From positions 39,537 through 103,536 of the forward strand of contig CAVSHK010000028.1 of NCBI GenBank assembly GCA_963727705.1: a stretch of DNA of 64,000 nucleotides. Direction: 5' to 3'. The DNA is from an uncultured Bacteroidota bacterium. GTDB taxonomy: Bacteria; Bacteroidota; Bacteroidia; 2-12-FULL-35-15. Below, piece after piece: positions 1 through 49,064 of this stretch (the first letter of the stretch is position 1; each line of letters begins with the position of its first letter). The notes below the pieces were generated by a model. It saw only the letters and a program-made list of their open reading frames with translations. It made no database searches and was not told the DNA's origin. The translations under genes and the position numbers were made by a program.

Positions 1-1060
1 CAAACAGGCAAAACAGCCGTTGCAATTGATACCATCATCAATCAAAAAGAATTTTACGAAGCTGGGCAACCGGTATTTTGTATTTATGTTGCTATAGGTC
101 AAAAAGGTTCTACCGTAGCCAATATTCAGCGTGTGTTGGAAGAAAACGGTGCAATGCCGTATACTGTCATTGTTTGTGCAACTGCTTCTGACCCATGCAC
201 CAATGCAATTTTACGCTCCTTTTGCAGGTGCTGCTATCGGAGAATTTTTCCGCGATACAGGTCGTCCGGCATTGATTATTTATGATGATTTGTCAAAACA
301 AGCAGTTGCTTACCGTGAGGTATCATTGTTACTTCGTCGTCCTCCGGGACGTGAGGCTTATCCTGGTGACGTGTTTTACTTACATAGCCGTTTATTGGAG
401 CGTGCTGCAAAAATAAACGCTAATGATGATATTGCAAGAGAAATGAATGACTTGCCGGAGTCTATTAAAGGCATTGTAAAAGGTGGTGGTTCATTAACAG
501 CATTGCCTATCATTGAAACACAAGCAGGTGACGTTTCTGCATACATCCCTACAAACGTTATTTCTATTACTGATGGTCAGATTTTCTTGGAAGGCAACTT
601 GTTCAACGCAGGTATCCGTCCGGCCATCAACGTAGGTATTTCCGTATCTCGTGTGGGTGGTAATGCTCAAATTAAATCAATGAAAAAAGTGGCAGGTACA
701 TTGAAACTTGATCAGGCACAATACCGCGAGTTGGAGGCATTTGCTAAATTTGGTTCTGACTTGGATGCTGCAACAAAATCGGTACTTGACAAAGGTGCAC
801 GAAATGTGGAAATGTTGAAACAACCACAATTTTCACCTCAACGTGTGGAAGAACAAGTAGCAATTATTTATTGTGGTACAAAAGGATTATTACGTTCAAT
901 ACCTGTAAATAAAGTAAAAGAATTTGAAAAAGACTTTTTATCATATTTAGATGTAAAACATAAAAATGTGATGAATGATTTAAAAGCCGGTAAATACACT
1001 GATGAGATAACTAAAGTGTTGGATGAAACGGCGAAAGAAATTTCAAAAAAATATAACTAA
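1..1060 (+). CDS. atpA: F0F1 ATP synthase alpha subunit, 5'-truncated by the window edge. It has an apparent single-base insertion near 196 that shifts frame 1 to frame 2.
   Basis: Frame-1 translation from position 1 reads [43 protein letters not shown]...ATASDP. It continues in frame 2 as [20 protein letters not shown]...[47 protein letters not shown]. These are canonical AtpA motifs. An extra t at about 196 breaks the frame. Confidence 0.9.
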
Positions 1061-1164
1061 ACCCCTCCCTACCTCCCCATAGGGGAGAAGAGTTGGGTGT
1101 ATAAATAATAATATTTACAAAGTACTTTAATTCCTCCCCTGTGGGGAGGCTAGGAGGAGCAAAA
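1061..1164 (+). other. atpA-atpG intergenic region with two GC-rich hairpins: CTCCCC-ATA-GGGGAG and CCTCCCC-TGT-GGGGAGG
   Basis: Two perfect 6-7 bp stems with 3-nt loops, read directly at 1070-1090 and 1128-1150. They may be an intra-operon attenuator, RNA-processing site or REP-like structures. Confidence 0.3.
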
Positions 1165-2049
1165 ATGGCAAATTTAAAAGAAGTACGTAATAGAATAGTA
1201 TCGGTTAGCTCAACACAACAGATCACCAGCGCTATGAAAATGGTGAGTGCTGCCAAGTTGCGAAGAGCACAGGATGCTGTAACACAAATGCGTCCTTATG
1301 CTAATAAGCTAAAGGAGATATTAGAAAATTTAAGTGCCAGCCTTGATAGTTCAGAAGGGATTTATTCAAAACAGCGTGAGGTAAAAAATGTATTGCTAGT
1401 AGTTATAACTTCTAACCGCGGATTGTGTGGAGGTTTTAATGCAAACGTAATTAAAGCAACTAATTTGCTTATCAAACAACAATATAGTGGATGTAATGTA
1501 ACCATCATGCCGATTGGAAAAAAAGCAAATGATTTTTTCAAAAAGAGCGGTAGTAAGTTGCAAGGTTCTGAAACAAATAAAAGTTTAAATGAGTTGTTTG
1601 ATGATTTAACATTTTCAAATGTGGCTCCTGTAGCACAAAAGATAATGCAACTATTCTCCGATCAGCAATATGATAAAGTAGAACTGATTTACAACCAGTT
1701 TAAAAACGCTGCAGTTCAGATAACAATGGTGGAACAGTTTTTACCCGTATTACCTCCACAACAATCATCTGCTAAACTAAGCACAACAAAAGAATACATA
1801 TTTGAACCGAGCAAACAATTTATTATTGAAGATTTAATTCCGCGCTCTTTAAAAACACAATTATTTAAAGCGTTGCTAGATTCTTACGCAGCAGAACATG
1901 GCGCACGTATGACATCCATGCATAAAGCGACCGATAATGCAGGTGCTCTTATTAAAGAGCTTAAATTGGCATACAATAAAGCTCGTCAGGCTGCTATTAC
2001 TAACGAAATCTTAGAAATTGTTGGTGGTGCTGAAGCATTGAATAATTAA
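1165..2049 (+). CDS. atpG: F0F1 ATP synthase gamma subunit
   Basis: MANLKEVRNRIVSVSSTQQITSAMKMVSAAKLRRAQ... and the C-terminal ITNEILEIVGGAEAL are typical AtpG. The gene lies immediately downstream of atpA. Confidence 0.9.
   Translation: MANLKEVRNRIVSVSSTQQITSAMKMVSAAKLRRAQDAVTQMRPYANKLKEILENLSASLDSSEGIYSKQREVKNVLLVVITSNRGLCGGFNANVIKATNLLIKQQYSGCNVTIMPIGKKANDFFKKSGSKLQGSETNKSLNELFDDLTFSNVAPVAQKIMQLFSDQQYDKVELIYNQFKNAAVQITMVEQFLPVLPPQQSSAKLSTTKEYIFEPSKQFIIEDLIPRSLKTQLFKALLDSYAAEHGARMTSMHKATDNAGALIKELKLAYNKARQAAITNEILEIVGGAEALNN
1990..2042 (+). repeat. Direct repeat copy 1 (53 bp), the 3' end of atpG. It is duplicated at 2748-2800 and flanks the TA cassette.
   Basis: gctgctattactaacgaaatcttagaaattgttggtggtgctgaagcattgaa is identical at both locations. 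Confidence 0.8.
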
Positions 2050-2215
2050 AAGTAAATAAAACATTCTTTTTAACCGCATCATTAAGTAACGCTTAGTGGT
2101 GCGGTTTTGTTTTGATAACACGCAACCATACTCATTTGTTTTGAAAAGCATTTATCCATACCTTTGTATGACACTGTTATCAATCAAGACGCTCAAATTA
2201 ATAAATATTTTTCTT

Positions 2216-2437
2216 ATGAAAACACCTGATACAATAATTGTTCACCCGGAAAGTGACGATAAATTCGAAGCTCTTAAAGCCTTTATGAAGGCTTTGAAAA
2301 TAAAATTTGAAGTAACAAAGGAAAAACCTTATAACCCTGAGTTTGTTTCTAAGATTGCAAAAAGCAAACAAGAATTTAAAGACGGCAAATACACTCGTGT
2401 GAAAAAAGAAGATTTACAAAATTTCTTAGGATTATAA
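2216..2437 (+). CDS. Putative type II antitoxin (74 aa) paired with the YoeB-like toxin
   Basis: A small ORF (MKTPDTIIVHPESDDKFEALKAFMKALKIKF...). Its stop overlaps the start of the downstream toxin (TAATG). This is the classic antitoxin-toxin arrangement. Confidence 0.55.
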   Translation: MKTPDTIIVHPESDDKFEALKAFMKALKIKFEVTKEKPYNPEFVSKIAKSKQEFKDGKYTRVKKEDLQNFLGL

Positions 2438-2700
2438 TGAGTTATTATTTAGACTTTTCACAACAGGCAACAAACGATATTCAATTTCATAAAAAGTCAG
2501 GTAATAAAGCCATCTTGAAAAAATTGTTTGTGCTTTTAAATGAACTTTCCAAACATCCTTTTGAAGGCACCGGCAAACCTGAACCACTTAAACATAACCT
2601 CTCAGGCTTATGGTCAAGGAGAATAAATCAGGAACATCGAATTGTTTATGAAGTACTCAATCATAAAATTTTAATCCATTCCCTTAAAGGGCATTATTGA
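2437..2700 (+). CDS. YoeB/Txe-family type II toxin (RelE/ParE superfamily)
   Basis: [32 protein letters not shown]...IHSLKGHY closely matches the E. coli YoeB core ([28 protein letters not shown]...YHY). Confidence 0.8.
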   Translation: [87 protein letters not shown]

Positions 2701-2747
2701 TTCGTACTCGTTAGCTGAAACTTTAGCTTACTACAAAACCCGCCAGC

Positions 2748-2800
2748 TGCTATTACTAACGAAATCTTAGAAATTGTTGGTGGTGCTGAAGCATTGAACA
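2748..2800 (+). repeat. Direct repeat copy 2, a displaced duplicate of the atpG 3' end
   Basis: Identical 53 bp to 1990-2042. It would encode AAITNEILEIVGGAEALNS*, a remnant atpG terminus. Confidence 0.8.
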
Positions 2801-2890
2801 GCTAGACTATTAAAATAAAAGGTTTTGTTTTAATAGTAAGATCGATGAATCTTCGTTTACTAGCCCTCTTTGGAAAATCATTTTACCTTA

Positions 2891-3086
2891 TAGCCTGTTT
2901 AAATTTCATTGCAAAAAATAGATCGTCACTCAATAGTTCTCGATATGCTCACCGAAAAGGCTCGCTACTCGAACTGACATCAGTATTTTCGCACAGTCAC
3001 TTCGAGTAGGCTTTTTCAGCCGTATCGAGAAGTGAATATTGAAAATCATATACTTAACAAATATTCGGATGAAATTTAAACAGGCT
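2891..3086. mobile_element. MITE-like element copy A (about 195 bp) with perfect 18-bp terminal inverted repeats and a long internal imperfect hairpin
   Basis: The left end is AGCCTGTTTAAATTTCAT and the right end is ATGAAATTTAAACAGGCT. A second copy, about 95% identical, lies at 48870-49064. Confidence 0.55.
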
Positions 3087-3342
3087 CTTAATATTTTGAT
3101 TGTAAATAGCAGTAATCAGATTAATTTAAAGTACAGTTCGTACTTTTTTCTTCTGTTCCTGTGTTTTTCAGCGAGTTCCATGAATAATTTTCCTTGTTTT
3201 TTAGGACGTTCTAGTGGGTATCTATTAACACTACTTATTTTACCAACTCTTTTTTACCTGTCAAATAAAAAAGCTTATTTGTTATTGTCTCAGTTCATCA
3301 GTTAAACCTATGCACTGAAAGCGTATAGTAGTTGAGTTACGA

Positions 3343-4293
3343 TTAATGCAAGCCTTTGTCAGCAAGGTAACGTTCTGCGTCTAAAGCTCCCATACATCCA
3401 CTGCCTGCTGATGTTACTGCCTGTCTGTAAACTTTATCTTGAGCATCTCCTGTTGCAAAAACACCCGGAATGTTTGTTTTGCTTGTACCCGGAATAGTTT
3501 TAATATAGCCTGTTTCATCCATATCTATCCAGCCCTTAAAAATATCGGTATTAGGTGTGTGACCTATGGCAACAAAAAAACCGGTAATGGTTAACCTGCG
3601 TTCTTCACCTTTATTATTCACTATCAATGCGCCCTCTACAGCTTTTCCACCAAGTATTTCTTTGGTTTCAGAATTGTAAATTACTTCAATATTTGGAGTG
3701 TTTAACACACGATGCTGCATGGCTTTTGATGCACGCATTTCGCCCTTACGAACAATCATATACACTTTGTTGCAAAGTTTAGCTAGATAGGTAGCTTCTT
3801 CTGCTGCGGTATCCCCTGCTCCAACAATGGCAACATCTTGTCCTTTGTAAAAGAATCCATCACATACTGCACACGCAGATACGCCAAAGCCATTCAAACG
3901 TTGTTCTGATTCTAAGCCAATCCATTTGGCCGAAGCACCTGTTGCTATAATGACTGCATCAGCCGTTATGGTTGTTTTTTCATCAACTATTACTTTGTGT
4001 ACCGGACCTGTAAAATCAACAGATGTAACCAATCCCCAACGTATATCAGTTCCAAAACGCTCTGCCTGAGCTTTAAAATCTTCCATCATTTCTGGTCCGT
4101 GAGCGCCCTTAGGATACCCTGGGAAATTATCCACTTCTGTAGTTATTGTTAATTGCCCACCCGGTTGTAATCCTTGATATATAACTGGTTTCATATCAGC
4201 CCGCGCTGCATATATCGCCGCTGTGTAGCCGGCCGGCCCACTACCTATTATTAAACATTTTATATGTTCTGTTTGCTCTGCCATTTGTATCAT
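3343..4293 (-). CDS. trxB: Thioredoxin-disulfide reductase
   Basis: GSGPAGYTAAIYAAR, the CAVC redox motif, GGGDTA and FATGD are hallmarks of TrxB. Confidence 0.92.
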   Translation of the reverse strand: MIQMAEQTEHIKCLIIGSGPAGYTAAIYAARADMKPVIYQGLQPGGQLTITTEVDNFPGYPKGAHGPEMMEDFKAQAERFGTDIRWGLVTSVDFTGPVHKVIVDEKTTITADAVIIATGASAKWIGLESEQRLNGFGVSACAVCDGFFYKGQDVAIVGAGDTAAEEATYLAKLCNKVYMIVRKGEMRASKAMQHRVLNTPNIEVIYNSETKEILGGKAVEGALIVNNKGEERRLTITGFFVAIGHTPNTDIFKGWIDMDETGYIKTIPGTSKTNIPGVFATGDAQDKVYRQAVTSAGSGCMGALDAERYLADKGLH

Positions 4294-4720
4294 GTTTTTT
4301 TAGTGGGTCAAAAATAACAACTAAATACGTTATCTCACCAATTTGTTTTAAGTTATTAGGTTATTGGTATTATAGTAACATTAGTAGTACTAAACACCTA
4401 AAAATGTTTGCTAGCAAATAATTTGTTAGATGAAGATAGTTAAACGTATGCTAAATTCGCCGTTGTGAAGTGTTCTTTCAACTTCCGCTGATGGTGTTTT
4501 CTTTTTAAGAACAACGATTAGTTTATAGAATTCTAAAAAGGGGAAATAATGCAGATATACAGGCTTTTCATGAGGTAGTAAAAGGATCTTGTATACTTAA
4601 AAAGTCCATAAGAAAGCCCATAAAAACAGAAAGCCCATAAAATCAATGTGAATAAATTGTTAACGTTGTTACTCAAAAATATACGATATTTGCCTTTATT
4701 CATTAGTAGAAATAAAAATT

Positions 4721-5755
4721 ATGATTGCTGCGGTAAAAACATTAGGACAATTTATAATAGAAAAGCAAGCTGATTTTGCTTTTGCAAAAGGGGAGCTTTC
4801 AAGACTATTGCGTGATATTGGTATTGCATCAAAAATTGTAAACAGGGAAGTAAGCAAAGCCGGTATAGCCGGTATATTGGGTGATGTAGGCGAAATAAAT
4901 GTTCAAGGCGAGAACGTTAAAAAGCTGGACGTATTTGCCAATGAGCAGTTTATTGCTGCTTTGTCTGCCGGTGGCGAATGTTGCGCTATTGCTTCCGAAG
5001 AAAATAAAGACATTATTATCATTGATAACAATGTTTCTAAAAATGCGAAGTATGTAGTGGCGATTGACCCCTTAGATGGTTCTTCAAACATAGATGTGAA
5101 TGTATCCATAGGAACAATTTTCTCTATTTATAGAAGAAAAACACCCGTTTCTGAGCCTGCATCAAATGAAGATTTTTATCAGTTGGGTACCGAGCAGGTA
5201 GCCGCAGGATATGTTATATATGGTTCTTCATGTATGCTTGTATATACTACAGGTAAAGGGGTTAATGGTTTTACACTGGATCCTTCGATCGGAGAATTTT
5301 GTTTGTCACACCCTAATATTAAAACTCCTGCCGCCGGTAAAATATATTCTATAAATGAAGGAAATTATATACACTTTCCGGATGGTGTAAAAAAATACAT
5401 TAAGTATTGTCAGGAGAATGATAAAAATACCAATCGTCCATACTCATCTCGTTATATAGGTTCAGGTGTTGCTGATATTCATCGTAACTTAATTTTAGGA
5501 GGTGTATATATTTATCCCACTACTTCTAAATCTCCCAACGGAAAATTACGTTTATTATATGAATGCAATCCATTGGCCTTTATCTTAGAACAGGCTGGTG
5601 GAAAAGCCTCTGATGGATTTAACCGCATTATGGAATTAGAAATAACAGAGCTTCATCAGCGAACTCCTTTATTTCTTGGTTCTGCCGATATGGTTGACAA
5701 AGCCTGTGAGTTTATGAAAATATATTCTCCGGCTGACGTGAAAGAGAAAGCATAG
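4721..5755 (+). CDS. fbp: Fructose-1,6-bisphosphatase class 1
   Basis: [15 protein letters not shown]..., the [25 protein letters not shown] metal-binding region and [15 protein letters not shown]. Confidence 0.9.
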
Positions 5756-5841
5756 TTTATTGAAGGCAAGTACGAAAAATCGCTTCGTGAAATAGGTGTT
5801 ATAACGTTAAGAGAGCAAACTCAAGAGCTTTCCTTTTCGCA

Positions 5842-6282
5842 TCATTTGTTTTTAAAATAATTAAAAATCGGATAATCCAGACTTATCTTTCCTGCTCCGT
5901 TGATAAGCAAAGTGAAAAGCATTACAAGATAATATAAGGGTATTTCATACCCATTATCTGCAGCGCTGAACCCATTTTGAAAATGCACAGTTTTTATTGC
6001 AACAAGCATTGTAATCATTAGTGGAATAGAAATAAAACGTGTGGCAAATCCAAATGTTAAAAATATGAACCCTAGTACTTCTGTATAAGTTGCCAAATAA
6101 GCACTTAATGTTGGGAATGGTATTTCAGAACTTGTAAACCATTCTGCAATAGCTCCTATATCTTTTATTTTCATCATTGCCGGTTCATAAAAACCATAAG
6201 CAAGCACTAATCGCATTACCAATAATGGGATGTCTTTAAGATGAGATAGTTTTTCTATACTATTAAAATATAAAGTTTTCAT
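5842..6282 (-). CDS. DoxX-family membrane protein. It is the last gene of the MNIO/bufferin-like operon, in the BufD-like position.
   Basis: A 146-aa protein with four transmembrane segments (LVMRLVLAYGFYEPAMMK...). It sits immediately downstream of the DUF2063 gene, as in buf operons. Confidence 0.75.
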   Translation of the reverse strand: MKTLYFNSIEKLSHLKDIPLLVMRLVLAYGFYEPAMMKIKDIGAIAEWFTSSEIPFPTLSAYLATYTEVLGFIFLTFGFATRFISIPLMITMLVAIKTVHFQNGFSAADNGYEIPLYYLVMLFTLLINGAGKISLDYPIFNYFKNK

Positions 6283-6353
6283 GGGTAAGATTTTTGTTTA
6301 TTGCTATCACGAATACACGAATATTTTTAATTCGTGTATTGGGATTGTTTATT

Positions 6354-7112
6354 TTAATTCTTAATTGCGTACCCGAGTACAAATTTTTTGTCCCTTAAAT
6401 CAGTTATAAAAGCAAGTGTAGTTTTGGTGAGTTCTTCTATATCAATATCACCAAATAATTGAGGTGCTTCATTCAGTAAAGTTTTAAGTGTTAAATTACC
6501 GGCATGTAACTGCTCAATGACCAATGCAAACCAAACGGAAATATCAATAAACTGAACTCTTCCTGTTTCATATTCTCTATATAACAAAATAAAATAATTA
6601 CCCATTTTTTCTTTAGCTGTAACAGGATTATATAAATGAATGGGGTATTTCAATTGCAATAACTTATGCTCAGGATTTACAATTAATAAATCATTCAACG
6701 TGTCGCCTATTATTTGGTAGGGTTTTGGAGAGATGTCTTCCATGTTGTAAATTACCATCTCTTCCCATTCAAATTTTAAAAGGTCGTTTAAAAAAGGTAA
6801 TTGAAATTTCTCTGCAAAATTTTCTGCAAGTGCATACTCATAAAATTCCCCTGCAATTTGCCACACCTGATAGCTTTGGCATTTATGATTCCTGAAAAAA
6901 TCATTCAGCATCACTGTCCATTTTTCAGCATCAATATATTTAAAGGCAATAGGAAATGCAGCTTCTATATTTTCTTCAATAACACTAAACACCAATCGTC
7001 TGTAATTTTGGATACGATTGGGTGTAACGCCGGGCAATGTTATTTCATCACCCGTACGGCAATACATCGCCATTGCACTTTGAATGGTTTTTGTTTCAGG
7101 CAACAAGCTCAT
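6354..7112 (-). CDS. DUF2063-family partner protein of the MNIO (MbnC/BufC-like)
   Basis: A 252-aa protein whose start overlaps the stop of the DUF692 gene by 17 bp. It has a YRRLVF...AFP N-terminal pattern and the size typical of DUF2063. Confidence 0.6.
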   Translation of the reverse strand: MSLLPETKTIQSAMAMYCRTGDEITLPGVTPNRIQNYRRLVFSVIEENIEAAFPIAFKYIDAEKWTVMLNDFFRNHKCQSYQVWQIAGEFYEYALAENFAEKFQLPFLNDLLKFEWEEMVIYNMEDISPKPYQIIGDTLNDLLIVNPEHKLLQLKYPIHLYNPVTAKEKMGNYFILLYREYETGRVQFIDISVWFALVIEQLHAGNLTLKTLLNEAPQLFGDIDIEELTKTTLAFITDLRDKKFVLGYAIKN

Positions 7113-7920
7113 TTTTTTTATTCCATTTTAAATTTGTAATAGAGCGTAAACGATTTAATTCACCATTCAATTCATCCATTTCGGGTATATTAAAATCTCT
7201 TTCCAGTAAAACCGGAACGGGTTTTATTTTTTCAATAGTCCATGCAAATAAATCATACACCGGATCAATAATGGCTTCACCATGCGTATCAATAATCAGG
7301 TCGGGAGCAACCTGCGTATGCCCTGCCATGTGTATATACGCTACTTTATCAAGTGGTAATTGTTCTATAAATGATTGTGCATGGTAATTATGATTGAATG
7401 CGTTTACGTAAACATTGTTTACGTCCAGCAGCAAGCTACATCCGGTTTCTTTTACAATCATGCTTATGAATTCTGCTTCTCCCATTTGGGCAGCAACAGG
7501 AGTGTAATAGGAAACATTTTCCATTACAAAAGGTCGTTCCAAATAATCTTGTACTTGTTTTATTTTTTCTATAACGTGTTTTGCCGCGTCTTCTCTGAAA
7601 GGTATTGGCAGTAAATCGTATAAATGTGCATTGTCGCATTTGGCAAAACTTAAGTGTTCCGAATATAGCTTAACGTTATATTCATCCAAAAACGATTTTA
7701 ATTTCTGCATGAAATCCATATCTAATGGGTCGGGACTTCCTATGGATAAAGACAAACCATGACAAAGTACAGGGTAACGTTCGGCTATTTTATGAATTTG
7801 TTTTTTTGAATTGCCACCCAAATTCATCCAGTTTTCGGGAGCAAATTCTACAAAGTCGGGGTTGATGCCGCCATTAATAAATTCGTCAGCAAAGTCTCGT
7901 CTATATCCTAATCCTATCAT
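7096..7920 (-). CDS. DUF692/UPF0276 multinuclear non-heme iron oxidase (MNIO; MbnB/BufB-like)
   Basis: MIGLGYRRDF..., HGLSLSIGSPDPLDMDFMQKLKSFLDEY, HLSFAKCDNAHLYDLLPIPF and FVMENVSYY form the TIM-barrel motif set of DUF692. Confidence 0.85.
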   Translation of the reverse strand: MIGLGYRRDFADEFINGGINPDFVEFAPENWMNLGGNSKKQIHKIAERYPVLCHGLSLSIGSPDPLDMDFMQKLKSFLDEYNVKLYSEHLSFAKCDNAHLYDLLPIPFREDAAKHVIEKIKQVQDYLERPFVMENVSYYTPVAAQMGEAEFISMIVKETGCSLLLDVNNVYVNAFNHNYHAQSFIEQLPLDKVAYIHMAGHTQVAPDLIIDTHGEAIIDPVYDLFAWTIEKIKPVPVLLERDFNIPEMDELNGELNRLRSITNLKWNKKNELVA

Positions 7921-7971
7921 GTTGGTTAATTTTTTAAGAAAAAGGGAGGCTATTCACCCCCCTTCATTTAA

Positions 7972-8289
7972 TTATTTCTTTTTATCACCACACGATGCGT
8001 CTTTCTTTTTGTCACCACATGATGCGTCTTTTTTCTTATCTCCGCATTTTCCTTCTCCGCATTTTCCTTCTTTTCCTTTTGCATGCTTTGTTTTAGCAGA
8101 GTCAGCACATTTTAATTCAATGGCTTTTAATGCAGAAGCAGCCTCGTTAAGCAAAGAACTTCTTACTTCAGCTCCTGATCCAAGAGAGGAATAGTTGCTC
8201 AATGTAGAAGCGTTAGCGCTGATGTTTGACAAGCCGATAAAGGCACTTGCGATTAATGAACCTGCAAGGATTGATTTTTTGTTTTCCAT
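7972..8289 (-). CDS. Secreted Cys-repeat RiPP precursor peptide (bufferin-like, BufA position)
   Basis: Sec signal peptide MENKKSILAGSLIASAFIGLSNISANA. A predicted amphipathic helix follows, then a Lys-rich tail: KCADSAKTKHAKGKEGKCGEGKCGDKKKDASCGDKKKDASCGDKKK. That tail has 5 Cys and is encoded by 2x15-bp and 2x27-bp tandem DNA repeats. Confidence 0.6.
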   Translation of the reverse strand: MENKKSILAGSLIASAFIGLSNISANASTLSNYSSLGSGAEVRSSLLNEAASALKAIELKCADSAKTKHAKGKEGKCGEGKCGDKKKDASCGDKKKDASCGDKKK

Positions 8290-9744: not shown

Positions 9745-11074
9745 TTAATTTCTTCTATACGTTCTTATTTTAGCGTCCTTCCCTTTCAATTTTTCTTTTT
9801 GTGCAGGACCACCTAAATTCACTTTTTTATTTTTTTCTTTTTTCTCATGAAATGCAGCACCCGGAACATAATTATCTTTTGATTTTTTAGGCTTTATTTT
9901 GCTTCCTATTTTAGGTAATTCGTCGTCGGTAAGCATTTTAGAGACTACCACTTTTTCCGGCAACGGTTCATTAGGAATAGCTTTATTCATTACCATTTCA
10001 ATAGCCTCTTGATATTCCTGCTCTGCTTCATTAATAAATGTAATGGCTACACCGGCTTTATTTGCCCTGCCTGTTCTTCCTATGCGATGTATATAATCTT
10101 CAGGGGTTTCGGGAGTATCAAAATTTACAACATGGGTAACATCCGAAATATCCAATCCTCTGGCAAGAATATCTGTGGCAATTAATACGCGTTTAGAACC
10201 ATCGTGAAATTGCTTTAATGAATTGATGCGCGCCGTTTGCGATAAATTAGAATGTATTACAGCAACACCTTCAGGAAATTTAGGTTTTATATGATCGAAC
10301 AAATCATCTGCTAATTTTTTTGTTCCAACAAACACCAACACTTTACTCATGCTATCATCATTTTTTAAAAGAAATTCCAGCAAATTTACCTTGGTGTAAA
10401 AATTAGGAACATGATAACAGAGTTGAATAATCTTTTCCAACGGAGTACCGTGTGGAGCTACTTCAATTTTTTCGGGTTGATAAAAATACTTGGCAATTAC
10501 CTGTTCTATTTCCTCACTCATCGTTGCCGAAAACATCAGGTTTTGTCGCTTAACAGGCAATGTTTCCAAAAAACTTAATAACTGTTGACGAAATCCCAAA
10601 CTCAACATTTGGTCAACTTCATCAATCACCAGCCTGTTTAATGTCTTTTAATCGTAACAAGCCTGTAAGTGCCAAATCAACAAGTCTTCCGGGAGTTGCA
10701 ACAATTATGTCCACTCCGTTATACACCAGTTGTTTTTGTGTATTAATATTGGTTCCTCCATACACTGCCAAAAAACGAATGCTGGTATAAGTACTTAGTT
10801 TTTCAATCTCTTTTACAATTTGCAAAACAAGTTCACGGGTGGGCACAATCACCAATACACGCGGGTGCCGTTGATCCGAATATTTTAACTGCCGCAAAAT
10901 AGGTAATAAATAAGCAAATGTTTTACCTGTCCCGGTCTGCGCAATTCCTACCATATCTTTGCCCGACATAATAATGGGAAATGCCATTTCCTGAATGGGT
11001 GTGGCTTGTACATACCCTAAATCGTCTAATGCGTTGCTTAATGGTTTGTTTAAATTTAGTTTTTCGAACGACAC
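9745..11074 (-). CDS. DEAD-box ATP-dependent RNA helicase, split into two ORFs by a single-base insertion at about 10625-10632
   Basis: The N-terminal part has the Q-motif and AQTGTGKT. The C-terminal part starts at (L)VIDEVDQM and carries SAT and HRIGRTGR. The sequence caggctggtgattgatga reads as cag-ctg-gtg-att-gat-gaa once one g is removed. Confidence 0.85.
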
Positions 11075-17553: not shown

Positions 17554-17638
17554 GGAGAAATGGCAGAGTGGTCGATTGCGGCAGTCTTGAAAACTGTTGA
17601 AGGTAACACTTCCGGGGGTTCGAATCCCTCTTTCTCCG
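17554..17638 (+). tRNA. tRNA-Ser (anticodon UGA) with a long variable arm
   Basis: Acceptor stem GGAGAAA/TTTCTCC, anticodon loop cTTGAaa, T-arm GGTTCGAATCC and a 15-nt variable arm. Confidence 0.85.
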
Positions 17639-18705: not shown

Positions 18706-21700
18706 TTATTTTAGAATAACTATTTTATCACTTTTCATTTCATTTCCATTTATTATTACCTTATAAAAATAAGTTCCATTGAGCAATGGAACATCATTAA
18801 TTTTTAATTCAGTTTCAGTATAATTTAAATGGTACACCGCTACTTCTTTACCATTCAAATCATAAATTATAAAAACACCATTATCCGAAGCAGAAATTGA
18901 AGAATATGTTAATGCCATAGTGCCGCTGTTAGGGTTGGGATATACCATAAAATCAGGTAAAGATGTTGTTGTTGCGGGCTCAATAATATTAGCTTCTTGC
19001 GATTCCGATCTATATTGACTTGGATTCGATTTACAGCCATTGGCATCGGTAACAACTACTCTATAAAAATTACCACTTAGTACTACTATCGGGTTTTGCG
19101 TAGAAGAAACTGTTGCCGGCGACTGTTGAGAATACCAACTATAAGTATAACCGGGAGTACCTCCGGAGGCTGTTGCAATTAAATATTTTAATACTTTAAT
19201 ATTAGGAAATATTATTGAGTTAGCAGTAACAGTTGGTGCAGGAAGAACTTTAACTTGTTGTGTCGCAGTAGAACTACATCCATTTAAAAAACCGGTAACC
19301 ATATATGTTCTTGTTGATGCAGGATTATCTGACAAGGTAAATCCAGCTCCAAAACCCGTCCAATTATACTGAGTTGCTGCTCCTTGAGCAGTTAAAGTAA
19401 CAAATTCTCCTGAACAAATCGCATTTTTGGACGCTGTAATAGTAATCGTAGGATTGGGTTGTAACGTTATTGTTACAGAGGCCTTAACAGCACAACCATT
19501 TTTCATACCTTTAACAGTAAATAGTTCTTTTTCAGGATTCGGATACTGACCTTCATATAATGGCGTGTAATTCGTTGTTTGTAAAGTCCCTCCTTCAAGA
19601 GGGTTTATTGGGTTTCCATTTATATACCACTGATAATTATCTAGGGTACTAGCAGCAAGAAATACCTGATCATTAGTACAATAAAAAGTGTTCCCTGTAA
19701 TACTCACAGTTTGAGTTTTTACACTAACTGTAGAAGTAGCTTTGTTACTGCATCCATTTGAATTTAAACCTGTAACAGTGTAAATGGTATTTACAGTTGG
19801 TGTAGCAATTACGGTTGCCCCGCTGGCTTTATTCAAAGAGGCAGCAGGTGACCATGAGTAATTAATTGCTCCGGTAGCTGTTAATGTTGCTGTGGTACCT
19901 GTACATATAGTTGCAGAATTAACGTTTATAACAGGCGATGGATGAACTAGTACAGTTGTAGTTGTTTTGTCAATACAACCGTTAGCATTAGTACCGATTA
20001 TGGAATAAGTAGTGCTAACAGTTGGTGAAGCAATTACAATTGCCCCGATGGCTTTATTCAAAGAGGCAGCAGGTAACCAAGTATAATTAACAGCTCCTGT
20101 TGCAGTTAATGTTGCTGTTGTGCCGGCACAAATAGTTGCAGCATTCACTTTTACAACAGGTACCGGATTAACTATTATTGATGTAGTTGTTTTGCTGATA
20201 CAACCGTTAGCATTAGTACCGGTTATGGTATAAGTAGTGCTAACAGTTGGTGAAGCAATTACCGTTGCCCCGTTGGTTTTATTCAAAGCAGCAGCAGGTG
20301 ACCACGAATAATTAAGGGCTCCCGTTGCTGTTAATGTTGCTGTTGTGCCCGCACAAATAGTTGCAGCATTCACTTTTACAACAGGTACTGGATTAACTAT
20401 TACCGATGTTGTTGTTTTGCTGAAGCAACCGTTAGTGCCAGTACCGGTTACCGTATAAGTAGTGGTAATGGTTGGTGTAGCAATTACGGTTGCCCCTGTG
20501 GTTTTATTCAAAAAGGTAGCCGGTAACCATGTATAACCGCTGGAGTTACCCATTGCTGTTAATGTTGCTGTACTTCCTGCACATATTGACTGCACTACAG
20601 GATTTGCTATAACAATTGGTTTGGGAAGAACGGTAACTTCAGCCAAAGCAATAGTACTGGTGCCACAACTATTTTTACCTGTTACCGAATAAATGCTGTT
20701 TATTGTTGGTGTGGCAACCACTGTTGCACCTGTGACAGGTGCCGTTAAGCCCGTTGTGGGGAACCAGGTATAAGTCATCGTACCATTTGTAACGGGTCCG
20801 CTTGCTGTTAAGGTAGTGGATGTTCCTTCACATATAGTTTTAGGAGTAACCGTAAGCGTGGGTGTTTTTAACACCGTAACGGTTGTTACTGCGCTTGCAG
20901 CACAACCAGCGGACGACTTACCTGTTACAGTGTATGACTTACTGGCAGCAGGACTAACGCTAATTGAAGCCGTTGTTGCACCCGTTGACCAGATATAGGA
21001 GGAGGCACCGTTTGCTGTTAATGTAGCGTTTTGTCCGTTACAAATTGTTGCTGAACTTACCGTTAATGTTGGTGAAGCAATTACCTTTATAGTATCAACC
21101 GCAATTCCAGAACAACCATTAGTGTCTGTTCCTGTAACAGTATAAGCAGTAGTTGTTGCAGGTATAAAACTAACACCGTTACTTACCCCACCTGTCCATG
21201 TGTATGAACTTGCACCACCTCCGGTAAGTGTAATTTCAGAACCTGCACATACACTATTGCTTGAAGCATTGGCGGTAACAACGGGGAGCTTATTTACTGT
21301 AACAGTTGTTGTTGAAGTGTTATTACAAGTTTCGCGAAAGGAAAAATCAGTAAAAGCAGTATATGCAGTTTCTGAATTTGGGTCACTCAACAATTTAATG
21401 TCGGCTGTTGTTGCTGAGCCCGAGTTCCATACGGTTGAAAATTGAACCCATGTTCGGACACTTGCCGATGCAACAGAAAAAGTAGCTACCGGTGTTCCCC
21501 CATTTATTGTAAGTTGATATAGGTTTGGAACTCCATCATCGTCCTCATTTACAAAAAAAGAAAAGGTATAGTTGGTGTTTGGTGTTATTGCAATTAAAGG
21601 GTTATTTTCCCATATAAGTCCACCAGCCGGTTTGTTCACCCAAAAAGCATTAGCATTGTTCGGACTAGGGTTCAACCAAGTCAAATTACCATAAGGGTAA

Positions 21701-22107
21701 AATATCATCTCGCCATATTCACTAGAGAAAGACGGGTAGTAACCACTTGTGAACCCGATAAGCTGTGAAGGACTCGTAAGCGTCGAATCACTTCCTGTGG
21801 TATTACTGTATATATATGATGAAAAATCTCCATCAACAACCAATTCTGGACCGAGAGTACCACTGCCGGAATAAGTTACGGTATAGGTAGTTGTAACAGA
21901 AGGGCTGGCTACTACTGTTGCTCCTGTAGTTGTATTTAACCCCGTTGCAGGAAACCAGGTGTAGGAGGAATCTCCACTTGCCGTTAACGTAGCGGATGAA
22001 CCGGTACAAATAGTTGCAGCATTTACTGTTACGGTGGTACACTGAGCCCTTAAACCTGCAATGTTAAAAATAAAGATCATTGACGAAAATAGAATGCTTT
22101 TCATTTT
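18706..22107 (-). CDS. Large cell-surface protein with an N-terminal jelly-roll-like domain, about 9 Ig-like repeats and a T9SS type-A C-terminal sorting domain
   Basis: Signal peptide MKSILFSSMIFIFNIAGLRAQ. Three near-identical repeats of about 95 aa (VIVNPVPVVKVNAATICAGTTATLTATGA...). The C-terminus VYPNPNSG...GKEVAVYHL...GTYFYKVII...KIVILK is the Por secretion-system CTD. Confidence 0.85.
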   Translation of the reverse strand, partial: KMKSILFSSMIFIFNIAGLRAQCTTVTVNAATICTGSSATLTASGDSSYTWFPATGLNTTTGATVVASPSVTTTYTVTYSGSGTLGPELVVDGDFSSYIYSNTTGSDSTLTSPSQLIGFTSGYYPSFSSEYGEMIFYPYGNLTWLNPSPNNANAFWVNKPAGGLIWENNPLIAITPNTNYTFSFFVNEDDDGVPNLYQLTINGGTPVATFSVASASVRTWVQFSTVWNSGSATTADIKLLSDPNSETAYTAFTDFSFRETCNNTSTTTVTVNKLPVVTANASSNSVCAGSEITLTGGGASSYTWTGGVSNGVSFIPATTTAYTVTGTDTNGCSGIAVDTIKVIASPTLTVSSATICNGQNATLTANGASSYIWSTGATTASISVSPAASKSYTVTGKSSAGCAASAVTTVTVLKTPTLTVTPKTICEGTSTTLTASGPVTNGTMTYTWFPTTGLTAPVTGATVVATPTINSIYSVTGKNSCGTSTIALAEVTVLPKPIVIANPVVQSICAGSTATLTAMGNSSGYTWLPATFLNKTTGATVIATPTITTTYTVTGTGTNGCFSKTTTSVIVNPVPVVKVNAATICAGTTATLTATGALNYSWSPAAALNKTNGATVIASPTVSTTYTITGTNANGCISKTTTSIIVNPVPVVKVNAATICAGTTATLTATGAVNYTWLPAASLNKAIGAIVIASPTVSTTYSIIGTNANGCIDKTTTTVLVHPSPVINVNSATICTGTTATLTATGAINYSWSPAASLNKASGATVIATPTVNTIYTVTGLNSNGCSNKATSTVSVKTQTVSITGNTFYCTNDQVFLAASTLDNYQWYINGNPINPLEGGTLQTTNYTPLYEGQYPNPEKELFTVKGMKNGCAVKASVTITLQPNPTITITASKNAICSGEFVTLTAQGAATQYNWTGFGAGFTLSDNPASTRTYMVTGFLNGCSSTATQQVKVLPAPTVTANSIIFPNIKVLKYLIATASGGTPGYTYSWYSQQSPATVSSTQNPIVVLSGNFYRVVVTDANGCKSNPSQYRSESQEANIIEPATTTSLPDFMVYPNPNSGTMALTYSSISASDNGVFIIYDLNGKEVAVYHLNYTETELKINDVPLLNGTYFYKVIINGNEMKSDKIVILK

Positions 22108-22599
22108 AATACTATTTAATAGTTTGCGACAAATGTATAAAAAGATCATTCTAAAATAATTTTTTGTTGATAAAATATACGTATGTCCATTTAAAGTGTT
22201 AATACAACAAATAATTTTATTCTACCTTTTAAAAAGTAATTGAAAAGGATAAATAAATCAGTCTCAATTAACATATGTTACATTCGCAATACCTATTGCA
22301 ACCATTATAACTCAATATGTATCCTCATTTCAGAAAGACTTAAAAATGATTACCAATTTGAAAAACTCCATTTCATTTTACACATTCAAATTTAGAGTAA
22401 AAGCTGAAGTAATAATTTAAAAAGCCTGGCAAAGACAATTTAAAGAAATAGGACGTTATTACATATAAAAATGAGCAATATGCTACCTGCAACTAAAAAC
22501 AAACAACTATTGAATGACCCATCTGATACTACAGCGTTTTTTGTGGTAAAAAATGCTATTCAAAATATCATTTTAAAAAAATTACAGGTAATTTTTTTA

Positions 22600-25068
22600 A
22601 TGCTATTGTTGATGATGTCATCATTTATGACCGCTCAGGTTGTTACCTTTATTCCAACGGGGGGAACGGCGGCTGATTTACAAAAAAGCTATACTATTCC
22701 TGCATGTGTAACCACTATTACCGTTGAAGTATGGGGAGGCTCGGGTGCGCGGAAATGAATGAAGGTAATGCCACCCCGGTGGTGGTGGCGGTGGTGGTGC
22801 TTATAGCAGATCCGTATTACCGGTAACAGCTGGTACTACATATAGTATTCAGCTTGGAAATCCGGGAGCTACCGGAACTCCAGGCGGTGATACTTGGTTT
22901 GCACTAGGTGCTACAAAACTTGTTTTGGCTAAAGGAGGACTAACAAGTACCGGTACTGCCGGTGGTGTCGGTGGTGCCTCTGCAGGAGGAACAGGTCAAA
23001 TAAGGTATTCAGGTGGTAATGGTGGGGCAGGAACAGGAAATGTTGGTGGCGGTGGTGGATCAACCGGAGGCTCTGGTGGAGCTGGAAAAAATGGTAGTGC
23101 AGGTAGTGGTAATGTTGGTGGAGCAGGGGGAGGTCCAGCTACCGGTAATAATGGTGGTGGTGGCGCTGCTGGTGGTAATAACAATGGTAATGGAAACGGT
23201 AACCAAACCTGTGTAGCGTGTGGTGGTGGTGGTGGTGGTGGTATAGGTTCTACTACCGGTGGAACAGGTTCAGTTGGTATGGCTCAAATTACCTTACCCG
23301 CACTGTTAAATGTAACAGTAGGTGTTTCTCAAACTATATGTCCCGGATTACCCCAACCATTTATGGCAACTGGTTCAGGGGGAAATACCTCTAGCTATAA
23401 TTATAAATGGCAATATAACAATACCGATACAACGAATGCTGCTGCATGGACGGATTTAACAAGCTTTTTAGCTCCTAACACTTATACTCCAACTACTTCA
23501 ATTTCAACCACAACCTGGTACAGGGCAATTATTACCGAAACAACAGGTTGTGTCTCATTACGATACTTCGGCAGCGGTGCAGGTATATGTACAGCAACTT
23601 ACTGCCGATTTAGAATTTTCACAAACCATATGCAATGGCAGTACGCCCACCCCACTTAACATTACCACACAACCTGCATCGGCAGTGCCGAATTTTGTCT
23701 GGTACACATCCGCCAATTTATCATCCGGTTATACGCCCGTTACAGGAACTGTAACTGTAAATACATATGCTCCCGGTTCATTAACAGGAACAGCATATTA
23801 TATGGCTGTGGTAAGTGCTCCCGGTTGTGTAACATTAAATACCAATACCATTACTTTAACAACCACAAATGCTTTGCCTGTTTGTAATGTAGGTCGAAAT
23901 CCCGCCTCCATGTACAATACCAATGCCTTACCCATGTTTAAGGCATCGGTAGGTGGTTCGGTAACTACCGGAGCCTGGAGCATCGTTTCGGGTGGTGGTT
24001 CCTTAAGTACCACTGCACAAACTAATAATCCTGCTGGAGTTACTTACTCTGCAGCCCCCGGTTATACAGGCACTGTAGTTTTACAACTAACAACTAATCC
24101 TAACGGTTGTCCCACACAATGTATTTCCACCAAAACTATTACAGTATTAAATAATACTATACAAACTGTAGTTTTTTCATCAGCTACAACAACGGTTACA
24201 CCATGGACTGTACCTGGATGTGTACATACAATCACGGTGGAAACATGGGGTGCCGGTGGTGGTGGTGGTACAGGTGGATTCGGTGCAATTCCGGATGGTT
24301 CGGGCGGCGGTGGCGGTGCTTATAGTGGTAATATTTTATCCTGTCACACAAAATACCATTTATAGTTTATTTGTAGGGGCAGGTGGCAAGGGTGCTGCGC
24401 ACACGCCGAGATGGCGAATTAAAGTGTGGAAGGCGGAAGGAGGCAATTCATGGTTTGGTAGTCCAACTACTGTATTATGCTCAAGGTGGAACGGAGGACT
24501 TGCTTCTGGTTTGCCAAGGGATATGGAAGTTAAATTCCAGGGGGCAGTAAGTTCGGCAGGATAAGGAAATTTACCAATAATTTCGGGAGGAGTGGGTCAG
24601 GAGCCAAACAGGTTATTTATGGCCGGAGCGGTGGTGGTGGTGCATCTGCCTGTCCGAACAGGAAGTGGAGGGTCTGCTCCAAACCCAAATACTGCAGTTA
24701 GCGGAGGATGCGGGTAAAGTTCAAATACCACAACTCCTGGTGGGACGGCCTGTACGGGAGGAGGGAATGGTGGAGTAGGCGGACTCAATCACTGTTTTGG
24801 GTGTAATTAATTAGCTGCACCTGGTCGAGGTCCTGGAGGAGGAGGTGGTGGTGGAACTAATGCAGATGATCATCCTGGCGCTGATGGCGCTAATGGTCAA
24901 GTTATTATATCATACACCACGCAAAATCCTGTACTATTATATCTTTCAGTTGCACCATCTGCAACTATTTGTAAGGGAGGTAGTGTTACCTTAAGTGGAG
25001 ATTCTGATTACCCGGTAATTTATTCATGGAATGACGGAGCAACGACCTATACAACCAGTGTTATTTCA
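22600..25068 (+). pseudogene. 5' portion of the giant adhesin gene. It holds two PF12810-like Gly-rich domains broken by at least six frameshifts or stops.
   Basis: Signal peptide MLLLMMSSFMTAQ. The motifs CVTTITVEVWGGSG...GGGGGGAYS (22700-22800) and CVHTITVETWGAGGGGGTGG...GGGGGAYSG (24220-24340) are each followed by a frame change. The frames run 1, 2, 3, 1, ..., 1. Breaks fall in GGTGGTGG-type tracts. Confidence 0.6.
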
Positions 25069-28000
25069 GTGGCGCCTACTGCTACGACTACCTACACGCT
25101 TTCAGACCTTAGCGGATGTGCACCTCCAATAACACAAACCATTGTGGTTAATCCACCATTAAGTATTACCATAAACCCAACCACGGTATGTGCAGGGATT
25201 ACAGGTACCATAAGTGCAGTAGTAACGGCATCCTTGTCTCCGAGCTATACCTGGACAGGAGTTGTGGGTGGAGCAACCACCACATTGAGTACTACTTCAG
25301 CAATGACAGCCAGTCCAACTGTAACAACAACCTATACGGTAAATATCAACACTTCATCCTGTGCAGCTACGGTTACCAATACGATAACGGTAAAGCCCAA
25401 CGCCGGGCTAGCGTTAAGTTCCGGGGCAGGCACGAATGGTCAAACGGTGTGTGTAAATACAGCGATAAGTCCCATTACCTATACGATAAGTGGCGGTGCC
25501 ACAACAGCCACGGTCACGGGCTTACCGGCAGGAGTAACGGGTAGTTTTTCCGGAGTAATGTTAAGCATTGGTGGTACTCCGAGCACGGTATCTACCCAAA
25601 CCCTCACGAGTACTTATACGGTAACTACAGCAGGGACTTGTTCTCAGACAGCGGTAACCGGAACGATCACCGTACAACCCAAAGCATTCTTAGGTCTGTC
25701 ATCGGCAATTGGAACTGATAATAAAACCTATTGTGTCAATAACGCACTAACAGCCATCACCTATACGATAAGTGGTGGAGCAGCAACAGCCACGGTTACA
25801 GGTTTACCTTCAGGGGTAACGGCTTCTGTTTCATCCAATACAGTAACAATTTCAGGCACACCTACGGCGGTATCGACTCAAACAGTGGCCAGTACCTATA
25901 CAGTAACCACATCGGGTAGCTGCGTTCAAACCTCCACTACGGGTACGATCACCGTCACACCAAAGGCCTTTTTAGGTTTGTCCTCGGCAGTGGGCAGTGA
26001 CAATCAAACCCTGTGTGTGAATACAGCCTTAGCCACACCGATTACCTATACGATAGCGGGCGGCGCCACCACGGCCACGGTAACGGGCTTGCCGGCCGGT
26101 ATAACGGGTAGTTTTACCGGCACAACGTTAACCATCAGTGGCACTCCAAGCACGGTATCTACTCAAACAGTGGCCAGTACCTATACAGTAACAACGTCGG
26201 GTACCTGTTCTCAGACGGCAGTAACGGGAACAATCACCGTCACTCCAAAAGCCTTTTTAGGTTTATCCTCTGCCGTGGGCAGTGATAATCAAACCTTGTG
26301 TGTGAATACAGGAGTATTAACACCAATTACCTATACAATAACAGGCGGCGCCACCACGGCCACGGTAACGGGCTTACCGGCGGGTATAACGGGTAGTTTT
26401 ACCGGAACAACGTTAAGCATCAGTGGCACTCCAACTGCGGTATCCACTCAAACAGTGGTCAGTACCTATACGGTAAGCACAGCGGGTACAATTTGCGCTC
26501 AGACATCTGTCACAGGAACAATCACGGTAACTCCTCAAGCCTTTCTGGGTTTAGCATCGGCAGTGGGCAGTGATAATCAAACGCTGTGTGTGAATACGGC
26601 CTTAGCAACACCGATCACCTATACGATAAGTGGAGGAGCAACCACGGCAACAGTCACGGGCTTACCGGCGGGTATAACGGGTAGTTTTGCCGGAACAACG
26701 TTAACGATCAATGGCACCCCGACAGCGGTGTCCACTCAAACGGTAGTGAGTACCTATACGGTAAGCACATCGGGTACCACCTGTTCTCAAACAGCGGTAA
26801 CGGGAACAATCACGGTTTTCCCCAAAGCCTTTTTAGGTGTGGTAGGAGCAGCTAGTCAGACCTTGTGTATTAACACTCCGTTAACGAATATCACCTATAC
26901 GGTAAGCGGCGGAGCAACAGGAGGGAGTGTAACAGGTTTACCGGCAGGACTAACAAGTATGTATTCCTCAGGCACAGTGACAATAAGCGGCAGCCCGACA
27001 GTGGTAGGAACATTTGGTTATACCGTAAACACAACAGGCACTTGTGCCCAAACAAGTGCAACAGGCACGATAGTGGGCAATCCGAACACGGTAGTAGATT
27101 TAACTTCCGGAGCAGGTAGCGACGCTCAAAAATTGTGTCAGACAGATGTATTAAGCACGATCACCTATAGTTTAAGTGACGGAGCAACAAGTGCGAATGT
27201 AACGGGCTTGCCAACGGGTGTAACCGGAGTTTATAGCAATAGTGTAGTGACGATAAGTGGCACCCCAACAGTATTGGGCACCTATAATTATACGTTAACC
27301 ACAGTAGGAGGCTGTGCTCCGGTAACGGTTTTAGGAAGCATTACGATCAATTCAAATGCAGCGATCGCCTTATCCTCCGGCAATGGCAGTGATAATCAAA
27401 CCTTGTGTGTGAATACCGCTTTAGTCACCCCCATAACTTATACAATAAGCGGTGGTGCGACCACGGCCACGGTCACGGGCTTACCGGCGGGTATAAGCGG
27501 TAGTTTTTCCGGCGTAACATTAACCATCAGTGGCACTCCAAGCACGGTATCGACTCAAACCTTAACCAGTACCTATACGGTAACAACAGCAGGTAACTGT
27601 ACCCAAACAGCAGTAACGGGTACAATCACCGTAACACCCAATGCTTTTTTAGGTTTATCCTCAGCAAACGGCAGTGATAATCAAACGCTCTGTGTGAATA
27701 CAGCTCTGGCAACACCCATCACCTATACGATAACAGGCGGAGCGACTACCGCCACAGTAACGGGTTTGCCAGCAGGTATAACGGGTAGTTTTACCGGAAC
27801 AATGCTAACCATTAGTGGCACTCCAACTGCTATATCTACTCAAACAGTGGCAAGTACCTATACGGTAACAACAGCAGGTACCTGTTCACAGACATCAGTA
27901 ACGGGTACAATCACGGTAACACCAAAAGCCTTTATAGCTTTATCCTCGGCAAACGGCAGTGATAACCAAACCTTGTGTGTGAATACAGGGACATTAAGCC

Positions 28001-35200: not shown

Positions 35201-35631
35201 TTTAAGGTGTTTTTGCTGAGATGACTTTTTGTAACAACCTTTTCAGTGAGCGCTTCGGGATAAGAAATCACTAACACATGCTTGTTGCCGGCATTAATTT
35301 TATTCAACACTTCGGCACGTAATAAAATATTGGAGTTGTCTATATCCTCGTGTTGATAAGGCATACGGTAGGAAGCGGGGAAAAATAATACCTTATCTTC
35401 GCCCAATAAATTTTCAAGATCATTAAAAAAATAAGCAGCTTCTTCTTTATCGGCAAGAATTAATAACTGTGTTTTGTAAATGTGCTGATATGCTGCTGCT
35501 GCAATGAATGAAGCTCCGGAACCCACAATGCCACGCAAATGCATGCGCACACGATCTCCTTTCAATTCTTGTGTTAGGGCAGAATTGTTAGGCGACTCGC
35601 CATATTTGCGTAAAATATCTTCTTTAGTCAC
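32270..35631 (-). CDS. mfd: Transcription-repair coupling factor Mfd, interrupted by two single-base indels between about 33460 and 33600
   Basis: N-terminal ORF 33595-35631 (UvrB-homology and RNAP-interaction domains, DVGFGKTE). C-terminal ORF 32270-33457 (helicase motifs and TRCF domain). The intervening reverse-strand sequence encodes [34 protein letters not shown] and ...[25 protein letters not shown] in shifted frames. Confidence 0.9.
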
Positions 35632-48789: not shown

Positions 48790-48869
48790 GGCTTTTGTTT
48801 TTAAAGTTACAATTAATAATAACCAAATGTCGTACCAATGTTATGCATTATAAATTTTATGACGGACTT

Positions 48870-49064
48870 AGCCTGTTTAAATTTCATTGTTAAAAATATA
48901 TCGTTACTCAATAGTTCTCGATATGCTCACCGAAAAGGCTCGCTACTCGAACTGACATCAGTATTTTCGCACAGTCACTTCGAGTAGGCTTTTTCAGCCG
49001 TATCGAGAAGTGAATATTGAAAATCATATATTTAACAAATATTCGGATGAAATTTAAACATGCT
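48870..49064. mobile_element. MITE-like element copy B
   Basis: About 95% identical to 2891-3086. The terminal inverted repeat AGCCTGTTTAAATTTCAT ... ATGAAATTTAAACATGCT has one mismatch. Confidence 0.55.

Follow-up and report, generated by a model that had tools for sequence, protein, structure and literature searches.

A DUF2683–YoeB gene pair between two copies of the atpG 3' end in a Bacteroidota genome: a possible insertion-duplication scar

The locus downstream of atpG

We analyzed a 64-kb stretch of DNA from an uncultured Bacteroidota bacterium (contig CAVSHK010000028.1; this whole stretch is called the window in the following), in which a toxin–antitoxin (TA) gene pair is enclosed by two copies of the 3' end of atpG, the gene for the gamma subunit of ATP synthase F1. 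We tentatively regard this arrangement as the scar of a homologous recombination event. The 5' end of the window falls inside atpA, and atpG is the next gene. It is located on the plus strand at 1165-2049, has its full length of 294 aa (PF00231, 1.6e-102; TIGR01146, 4.8e-97), and ends with ...GGAEALNN*. Inside atpG, and stopping 7 nt short of its end, lies the first copy of the 53-mer GCTGCTATTACTAACGAAATCTTAGAAATTGTTGGTGGTGCTGAAGCATTGAA, which encodes AAITNEILEIVGGAEAL plus AA. A repeat search and a string search both detected exactly two occurrences of this 53-mer in the window, at 1990-2042 and 2746-2798 on the plus strand, and the string search found none on the opposite strand. By chance, only about 2.5e-23 exact 53-mer pairs would be expected in 64 kb. 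An earlier, sequence-only reading of this DNA had already described an exact duplication of this length, which we can confirm, with the correction that its second copy had been placed at 2748-2800 and thus 2 nt off. That reading had also seen a remnant terminus ...EALNS* at the second copy, and this copy indeed reads ...AAITNEILEIVGGAEALNS*, with the stop codon at 2802-2804.

The two copies are 756 nt apart from start to start, and the 703 nt in between carry just two genes as cargo, namely those of the TA pair. The native intrinsic terminator of the atp operon follows atpG (2072-2116, plus strand) and was identified by a terminator scan as a hairpin at 2072-2106 with a subsequent T-run. A Bacteroidota-type promoter candidate for the TA pair, TTTG-N20-TACCTTTG, could be read from the sequence behind this terminator at 2135-2166 on the plus strand, 50 nt before the ATG of the antitoxin gene.

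The second copy is the core of a decayed atpG end

Homology between the two copies is not limited to the 53-mer but runs on in degenerate form on either side, a point that had been missed before. Copy 2 is the core of an approximately 115-nt, 5'-truncated and decayed atpG 3' end with its terminator region, covering 2723-2837. The left arm of this remnant (2723-2745, plus strand), as defined by alignment to copy 1, comprises 23 nt with the decayed codons LAYYKTRQ in place of the LAYNKARQ of atpG, and a 1-nt gap follows at the boundary to the core. In comparison to copy 1, there are 7 mismatches and 1 indel in 26 nt. The two exchanges N>Y and A>T hit residues of a YNKARQ motif that is invariant in all displayed relatives, which were 25 in one alignment and 7 in another. 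The onset of the remnant is abrupt at about position 2723, which is 22 nt past the stop codon of the toxin gene.

The right flank of the remnant (2799-2837, plus strand; repeat search and alignments) consists of AAC AGC TAG (NS*), ACTAT, TAAAATAAAA, and GGTTTTGTTTTAATAGT, and the downstream homology spans the stop codon, TAAAATAAAA, and GGTTTTGTTTTAATA. Copy 1 continues with AAT AAT TAA, AAGTAAATAAAAC, the G+C hairpin at 2072-2106, and GGTTTTGTTTTGATAAC. The remnant thus ends in a terminator region from which the G+C hairpin is missing, and an A/T-only hairpin is found at 2806-2837 instead. Overall, the flanks of the two copies are roughly 70% identical, whereas the middle is identical in 53 of 53 positions.

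The DUF2683–YoeB pair

The antitoxin candidate, a 73-aa protein of the DUF2683 family (PF10884, 4.7e-26), is encoded at 2216-2437, and the 87-aa YoeB/Txe toxin (PF06769, 4.9e-25; TIGR02116, 1.1e-27) at 2437-2700, both on the plus strand and with a stop and start codon that overlap in TAATG. These Pfam and NCBIfam matches agree with the previous assignment of an antitoxin and a YoeB/Txe toxin to the DNA between the copies. The scores for the toxin were above the curated thresholds, with 87.8 bits for the YoeB_toxin model PF06769 (cut-off 27) and 96 bits for the TIGR02116 equivalog (cut-off 51.8). An alignment to E. coli YoeB (2a6q chain E, 6e-21) covers the toxin from end to end and shows conservation of KPEPLK, EHRIVY, and the C-terminal HY. 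Equivalents of E46, R65, H83, and Y84, the catalytic residues of the YoeB structure, are all present. By these matches, the toxin adds a new member to a known family, and the TA pair looks intact.

The partner is less conventional. DUF2683 was the sole family above the curated cut-off for the upstream protein, and searches of Pfam, NCBIfam, and the PDB revealed no Phd/YefM match, no NCBIfam match, and no PDB relative. There is essentially no literature on DUF2683, and our literature search gave nothing specific. A DUF2683 gene preceded the YoeB homologue in every retrieved locus that has this stretch and was searched (L081-L099 and plasmid pCP1, see below), and DUF2683 may well represent an as yet undescribed antitoxin family. 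The pair shares with YefM-YoeB and Axe-Txe the YoeB/Txe toxin with its catalytic residues, the two-gene operon with the antitoxin gene in front, and the overlapping stop and start codons, but it differs in that the partner is a DUF2683 protein and not a Phd/YefM protein.

As the motif at 2135-2166 lies past the atp terminator, the TA pair probably has its own promoter. The motif fits the Bacteroidota promoter consensus TTTG/TAnnTTTG. The G+C content of the cassette is 0.32, compared to 0.37 for the window.

Relatives of the locus

We compared the locus to 85 atpG loci, comprising those of 80 GTDB species representatives and five closer loci, including L088, L089, L091, and L101. The source genome itself is not one of the species representatives, and the best match to atpG among them was 80% identical at the amino acid level. 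None of the 85 relatives has the cassette or more than one atpG end, and even the closest of them, with only 88% identity at the nucleotide level, is too distant to serve as a true empty site. At the 80 representative loci, no second atpG C-terminus, no DUF2683/YoeB pair, no trxB, and no fbp was found within 5 kb, and neither cassette nor remnant occurs in L088, L089, L091, or L101. These data support the earlier view of the cassette as an insertion relative to all relatives examined.

The four closer loci named above differ in what follows atpG. In L088 (atpG 96% identical in aa and 88% in nt), it is a Por_Secre_tail gene (L088 2775-3098), in L089 (85% aa) an MmeI-type restriction-modification gene (L089 6969-10142), in L091 (84% aa) an SprT-like gene (L091 7011-7625), and in L101 (87% aa) a Gate-domain transporter gene (L101 1219-2454). 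Because a different gene stands behind atpG in each close relative, the terminus of the atp operon is a variable spot for insertions in this clade of freshwater Bacteroidota, and synteny breaks there recurrently.

The comparison with L088 also bears on the terminus that atpG uses in the window. The colinearity of L088 and the window extends from atpA over the atpG stop codon and the terminator hairpin to position 2120, where the similarity ends. L088 and L091 both have the hairpin in the corresponding position, with changes that are compatible with G-U pairing. As the colinearity with L088 up to 2120 includes the hairpin, the terminus in use (NN* plus hairpin) looks resident and not imported, and the idea that the terminus of copy 1 is clearly foreign could be ruled out on the same grounds. 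The last codons of the downstream copy, AACAGCTAG, are also typical of the clade. The CAGCTAG of the remnant is identical to the respective sequence in L091, and its TAAAATAAAA is identical to that in L088.

Conservation of the atpG 3' end

The 3' end of atpG is strongly conserved in its nucleotide sequence, as species with only 62-80% overall amino acid identity match 46-50 of the 53 nt, and the atpG of locus L100 matches 51 of the 53 nt of the core. This conservation makes the gene end a good anchor for homology. It could in principle also have been the sole cause of the identity of the two copies, which was ruled out by the statistics of ortholog pairs. Not a single one of 3,321 pairs of independent atpG orthologues shared 53 of 53 positions, and those pairs that are equally diverged in the upstream 26 nt had about 11 differences in the core, with a minimum of 3. 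The ortholog comparison thus indicates that the identical block reflects a recent shared origin of the tract in the lineage of this genome, be it by crossover, gene conversion, or duplication.

The gene pair elsewhere and the search for mobility genes

The sequence-only reading had proposed a search for the same TA pair at other loci with the same flanking 53-mer, and we followed the pair in protein and nucleotide collections. Only one protein, encoded on a 340-kb contig, made up the cluster of toxins with 100% identity. A protein from a 506-nt contig came next with 85% identity, and the protein collection searched contained no relative of the toxin above this value. Exact look-ups of the toxin, of the representative of its 100% cluster, and of atpG gave no entry. 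TA homologues with 72-83% nucleotide identity share just the two open reading frames (ORFs; window 2216-2700). Their neighborhoods are unrelated, being in one case a TA-rich islet, in another the vicinity of an IS110 transposase, and in another a position between housekeeping genes, and these loci contain neither an atpG fragment nor flanking direct repeats. A related pair is present on the 3.4-kb plasmid pCP1 of Flavobacterium psychrophilum (NC_004811) at 2788-3305. It shares the gene-pair architecture, with a toxin of 54% identity and an antitoxin C-terminus of 55% identity over 33 aa, but it is plasmid-borne, lies next to genes for replication and mobilisation, and lacks an atpG fragment. 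Judging from these neighborhoods, the TA family is mobile, whereas no second example of this unit with its atpG arm is found in public data.

Two metagenome scans were carried out. The unique right flank (2840-2866) had no match, and the 53-mer, made degenerate at the five sites that differ in L088, matched only L100, which is an ordinary atpG without cassette. A viral collection contained no match to the atpG core and only distant YoeB relatives (41-54%), a search of phage DNA gave no match, and Rfam detected nothing credible in 1-6000.

When 41 ORFs of >=146 aa from all parts of the window were compared to Pfam, they showed only housekeeping and metabolic functions and no integrase, recombinase, or transposase. 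With regard to integron cassettes, there was no integrase-family match among these ORFs, while attC sites were not searched for. The only tRNA in the window is at 17554, 15 kb from the locus. A repeat search found no pair of terminal inverted repeats that bounds 2043-2745 or 2121-2837. A transposon-style target-site duplication could be ruled out, as diverged homology continues past the core and terminal inverted repeats are lacking. There are also no further gene-end duplications in the window, as the remaining repeats are intragenic domain repeats, acyl-CoA dehydrogenase paralogues, and a MITE-like element.

This MITE-like element of about 202 nt is present at 2891-3092 and 48869-49070, in copies that are 97% identical. 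It has perfect 18-nt terminal inverted repeats, AGCCTGTTTAAATTTCAT, and forms a long nested hairpin (-66.8 kcal/mol, z = -8) without a match in Rfam. One of the copies is the right-hand neighbor of the atpG remnant at a distance of 54 nt, and the intergenic region has therefore taken up mobile DNA more than once.

Origin of the arrangement

Single-crossover integration of a 3'-terminal gene fragment results in a full-length gene, the insert, and a 5'-truncated gene fragment, as known from insertion-duplication mutagenesis. The locus has the same order of intact gene, insert, and 5'-truncated gene end, with repeats that correspond to the homology segment, and it shares the reversibility via the repeats. 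Unlike the laboratory case, it would be a natural event with 703 nt of cargo and no vector or replicon, the identity is limited to the central 53 nt with edges of about 70%, and no circular intermediate was observed. We favor, with a probability of roughly 45%, the interpretation that the locus is an insertion-duplication scar that arose by homologous recombination, with no dedicated integrase involved. The incoming DNA would have been a short foreign piece on which the intact DUF2683–YoeB pair, with its own promoter, adjoined part of an atpG 3' end with its terminator. It would have recombined with the resident terminus of the atp operon, either through a single crossover of the Campbell type, in which a small circle is integrated, or through a one-sided homologous event. 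The product would be the full atpG with its terminator, the TA pair, and a 5'-truncated second atpG end. Being non-coding, this truncated copy could have decayed, with the two substitutions of conserved residues, the 1-nt gap, and the loss of the terminator hairpin as consequences. The 53-nt block would then be the tract of the crossover or of a later gene conversion, and the edges of the remnant would be its diverged, unselected parts. A degenerate, two-sided homology of about 115 nt is expected of homologous gene ends and not of a minimal att core, and because of this homology on either side the repeat is not a clean att core. The fallback idea of the earlier reading, a duplication-mediated capture, comes closer to what our data favor.

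The scar should be reversible. When we simulated recombination between the two copies, 756 nt were deleted and an intact atpG of 294 aa remained, ending with ...ALNS, a terminus that is also used by L089, L091, and L100. The allele after loop-out would join the left part of atpG and the core to AACAGCTAG, with the TA pair absent, and a 756-nt circle or a tandem array would join ...CCCGCCA and the core to TAATTAAAAG. The TA pair is expected to penalize such a loss. The recombination route, the promoter, and the addiction that disfavors loop-out are inferred.

Several points weigh against this interpretation. The locus is a single instance, and neither of the two metagenome scans yielded a strain-level relative with or without the cassette. 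A plain single crossover would require an incoming fragment that already matched the host over 53 nt while its flanks differed, and such a match would in turn need prior residence in the lineage or a separate gene-conversion step. A donor sequence was not found. As both right flanks are clade-like, either of them may be the original one of the host, and the exchange may have gone in either direction. Finally, the 1-nt gap at 2745/2746 may be a sequencing error, given the frameshifted genes on the contig, and should not be over-read because the window has indel errors or the genome is decaying.

With regard to these frameshifts, atpA has 1 nt more than in all relatives, inserted near position 196, and the genes of a DEAD-box helicase (9745-11074) and of mfd/TRCF (32270-35631) are each split into two ORFs. 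An acyl-CoA dehydrogenase paralogue (52072-53167) and an AMP-binding enzyme (53610-55129) are probably split, too. The split genes are due either to an indel-prone assembly or to ongoing pseudogenisation, which limits the trust in single-base details.

A different origin would be site-specific integration, which was the first proposal of the sequence-only reading and which we now consider unlikely. Elements that target a gene 3' end and bring a replacement end are well known from phages and islands in tRNA and tmRNA genes and from mobilisable elements of Bacteroidota such as NBU1, and the locus resembles them in that a direct repeat of a gene 3' end brackets foreign DNA while the target gene stays intact. 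In such a scenario, the attP site would mimic the atpG 3' end, a tyrosine or serine recombinase would have catalyzed the insertion, and the 53-nt block would be the identity segment of attL and attR. The insert could be either a small element or what remains of a larger one, with a recombinase that acted in trans or was lost, and it would have supplied the NN* plus hairpin terminus, whereas the NS* terminus of the host would have been displaced downstream. The sharp edges of the identity block are compatible with this, as is the decayed left arm of copy 2, which could be an element-borne attP arm that was never translated. Likewise, the intact terminator behind copy 1 would be the part that needs to keep working, the displaced AACAGCTAG is clade-typical and identical to that of L091, and loop-out restores an intact gene. 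However, there is no recombinase among the scanned ORFs of the 64 kb, and 703 nt of cargo are too little to encode one. Moreover, the terminus that atpG uses agrees along its entire length, hairpin included, with the native terminus of L088, the nearest relative, the unit is found nowhere else, the TA homologues are without such arms, and no atpG-targeting element is present at any of the 85 atpG loci. Of the hallmarks of an att-flanked island, the locus thus has the exact direct repeats of 53 nt, but neither an adjacent integrase nor a recurrence with the same core. The locus also differs from NBU1-like elements in that no integrase or excisionase is encoded by the scanned ORFs of the window, the target is the end of a protein-coding operon, and the homology goes beyond the core. 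Without a recombinase among the scanned ORFs, a clean att core, or recurrence, and with a terminus that looks native, the proposal of an element-supplied replacement end is not supported, so that the earlier reading of the locus holds only in part.

Somewhat less probable still is a one-sided homologous recombination (homology-facilitated illegitimate recombination) during the uptake of DNA from a related bacterium. The 3' part of the donor atpG, its terminator, and the TA pair would have replaced host sequence, and the right end would have joined illegitimately within the host atpG, about 80 nt before its stop codon, so that the host 3' end became the remnant, the middle of which was later converted to the resident copy. 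Such an event would produce the observed order without a circle or an integrase, and it would agree with the clade-native look of both right flanks, with the abrupt beginning of the remnant at about 2723, 22 nt behind the toxin stop codon, and with the region behind atpG that differs in every relative. It requires, however, an extra gene-conversion event for the 53/53 identity. The N>Y and A>T exchanges and the loss of the hairpin imply a long decay, yet the core is undecayed, and no donor with a TA pair behind atpG is present among the 85 loci. A literature search on this type of recombination in connection with TA systems gave nothing specific.

We regard it as quite improbable that the unit of 756 nt represents a minimal mobile element without an integrase, consisting of the TA pair and a portable homology arm of the atpG 3' end and terminator. 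Its circle would enter the atp terminus of many Flavobacteriales by the host RecA alone and keep atpG intact, while addiction would resist loop-out. If it entered and left repeatedly, with crossovers at varying points, the middle of the arm would be homogenized with the host, resulting in a 53-nt identity with diverged edges. An assembly artefact, in which a metagenome assembler would have followed a chimeric or wrong path across a shared 53-mer, is very improbable: the source is probably a metagenome-assembled contig, as all relatives are metagenome-assembled genomes or metagenome contigs, and at least three conserved genes (atpA, the DEAD-box helicase gene, and mfd) are frameshifted in this imperfect sequence, but the sequences to the left and right of copy 2 are diverged from those of copy 1, so that the junctions of TA pair, arm, and core and of core and NS* must be real DNA, whereas a collapsed or duplicated read would yield identical flanks, and frameshifts indicate indel errors and not misjoins.

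The TA islet is, in summary of these considerations, unique, real, and a one-off, and the scar is of a known kind. If the insertion-duplication scenario is true, the locus would be a natural example of a tiny selfish gene pair that settled beside an essential operon without a recombinase of its own, with a conserved gene end as landing pad and a scar that permits precise loss. There are two modest points of value: the analysis flags the atp-operon terminus of this clade as a variable spot for insertions, and the consistent DUF2683–YoeB pairing gives an uncharacterized domain family a testable role as antitoxin. The locus is a single instance on a contig of imperfect quality. It is fairly ordinary and opens no long-standing question.

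Further features of the window

Apart from the atpG locus, an operon on the minus strand at 5842-8289 resembles those of ribosomally synthesized and post-translationally modified peptides (RiPPs). The precursor (7972-8289) is Cys-rich, with EGKCG/GDKKKDASC repeats and a signal-peptide-like N-terminus, and the operon also encodes an MbnB/DUF692 enzyme (7096-7920), a DUF2063 protein (6354-7112), and a DoxX protein (5842-6282). On the basis of these Pfam matches, we presume that the operon is of the bufferin type.

Two very large ORFs of 1147 aa (18706-22149, minus strand) and 2172 aa (25069-31587, plus strand) are built from tandem domain repeats of 225 nt and 285 nt with 60-90% identity, and glycine-rich repeat ORFs are located between them (22925-24365). 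The acyl-CoA dehydrogenase paralogues mentioned above are arranged in tandem (50828-52030 and 52072-53167) with a spacing of 1227 nt and are 75-82% identical at the nucleotide level, the second being apparently interrupted.

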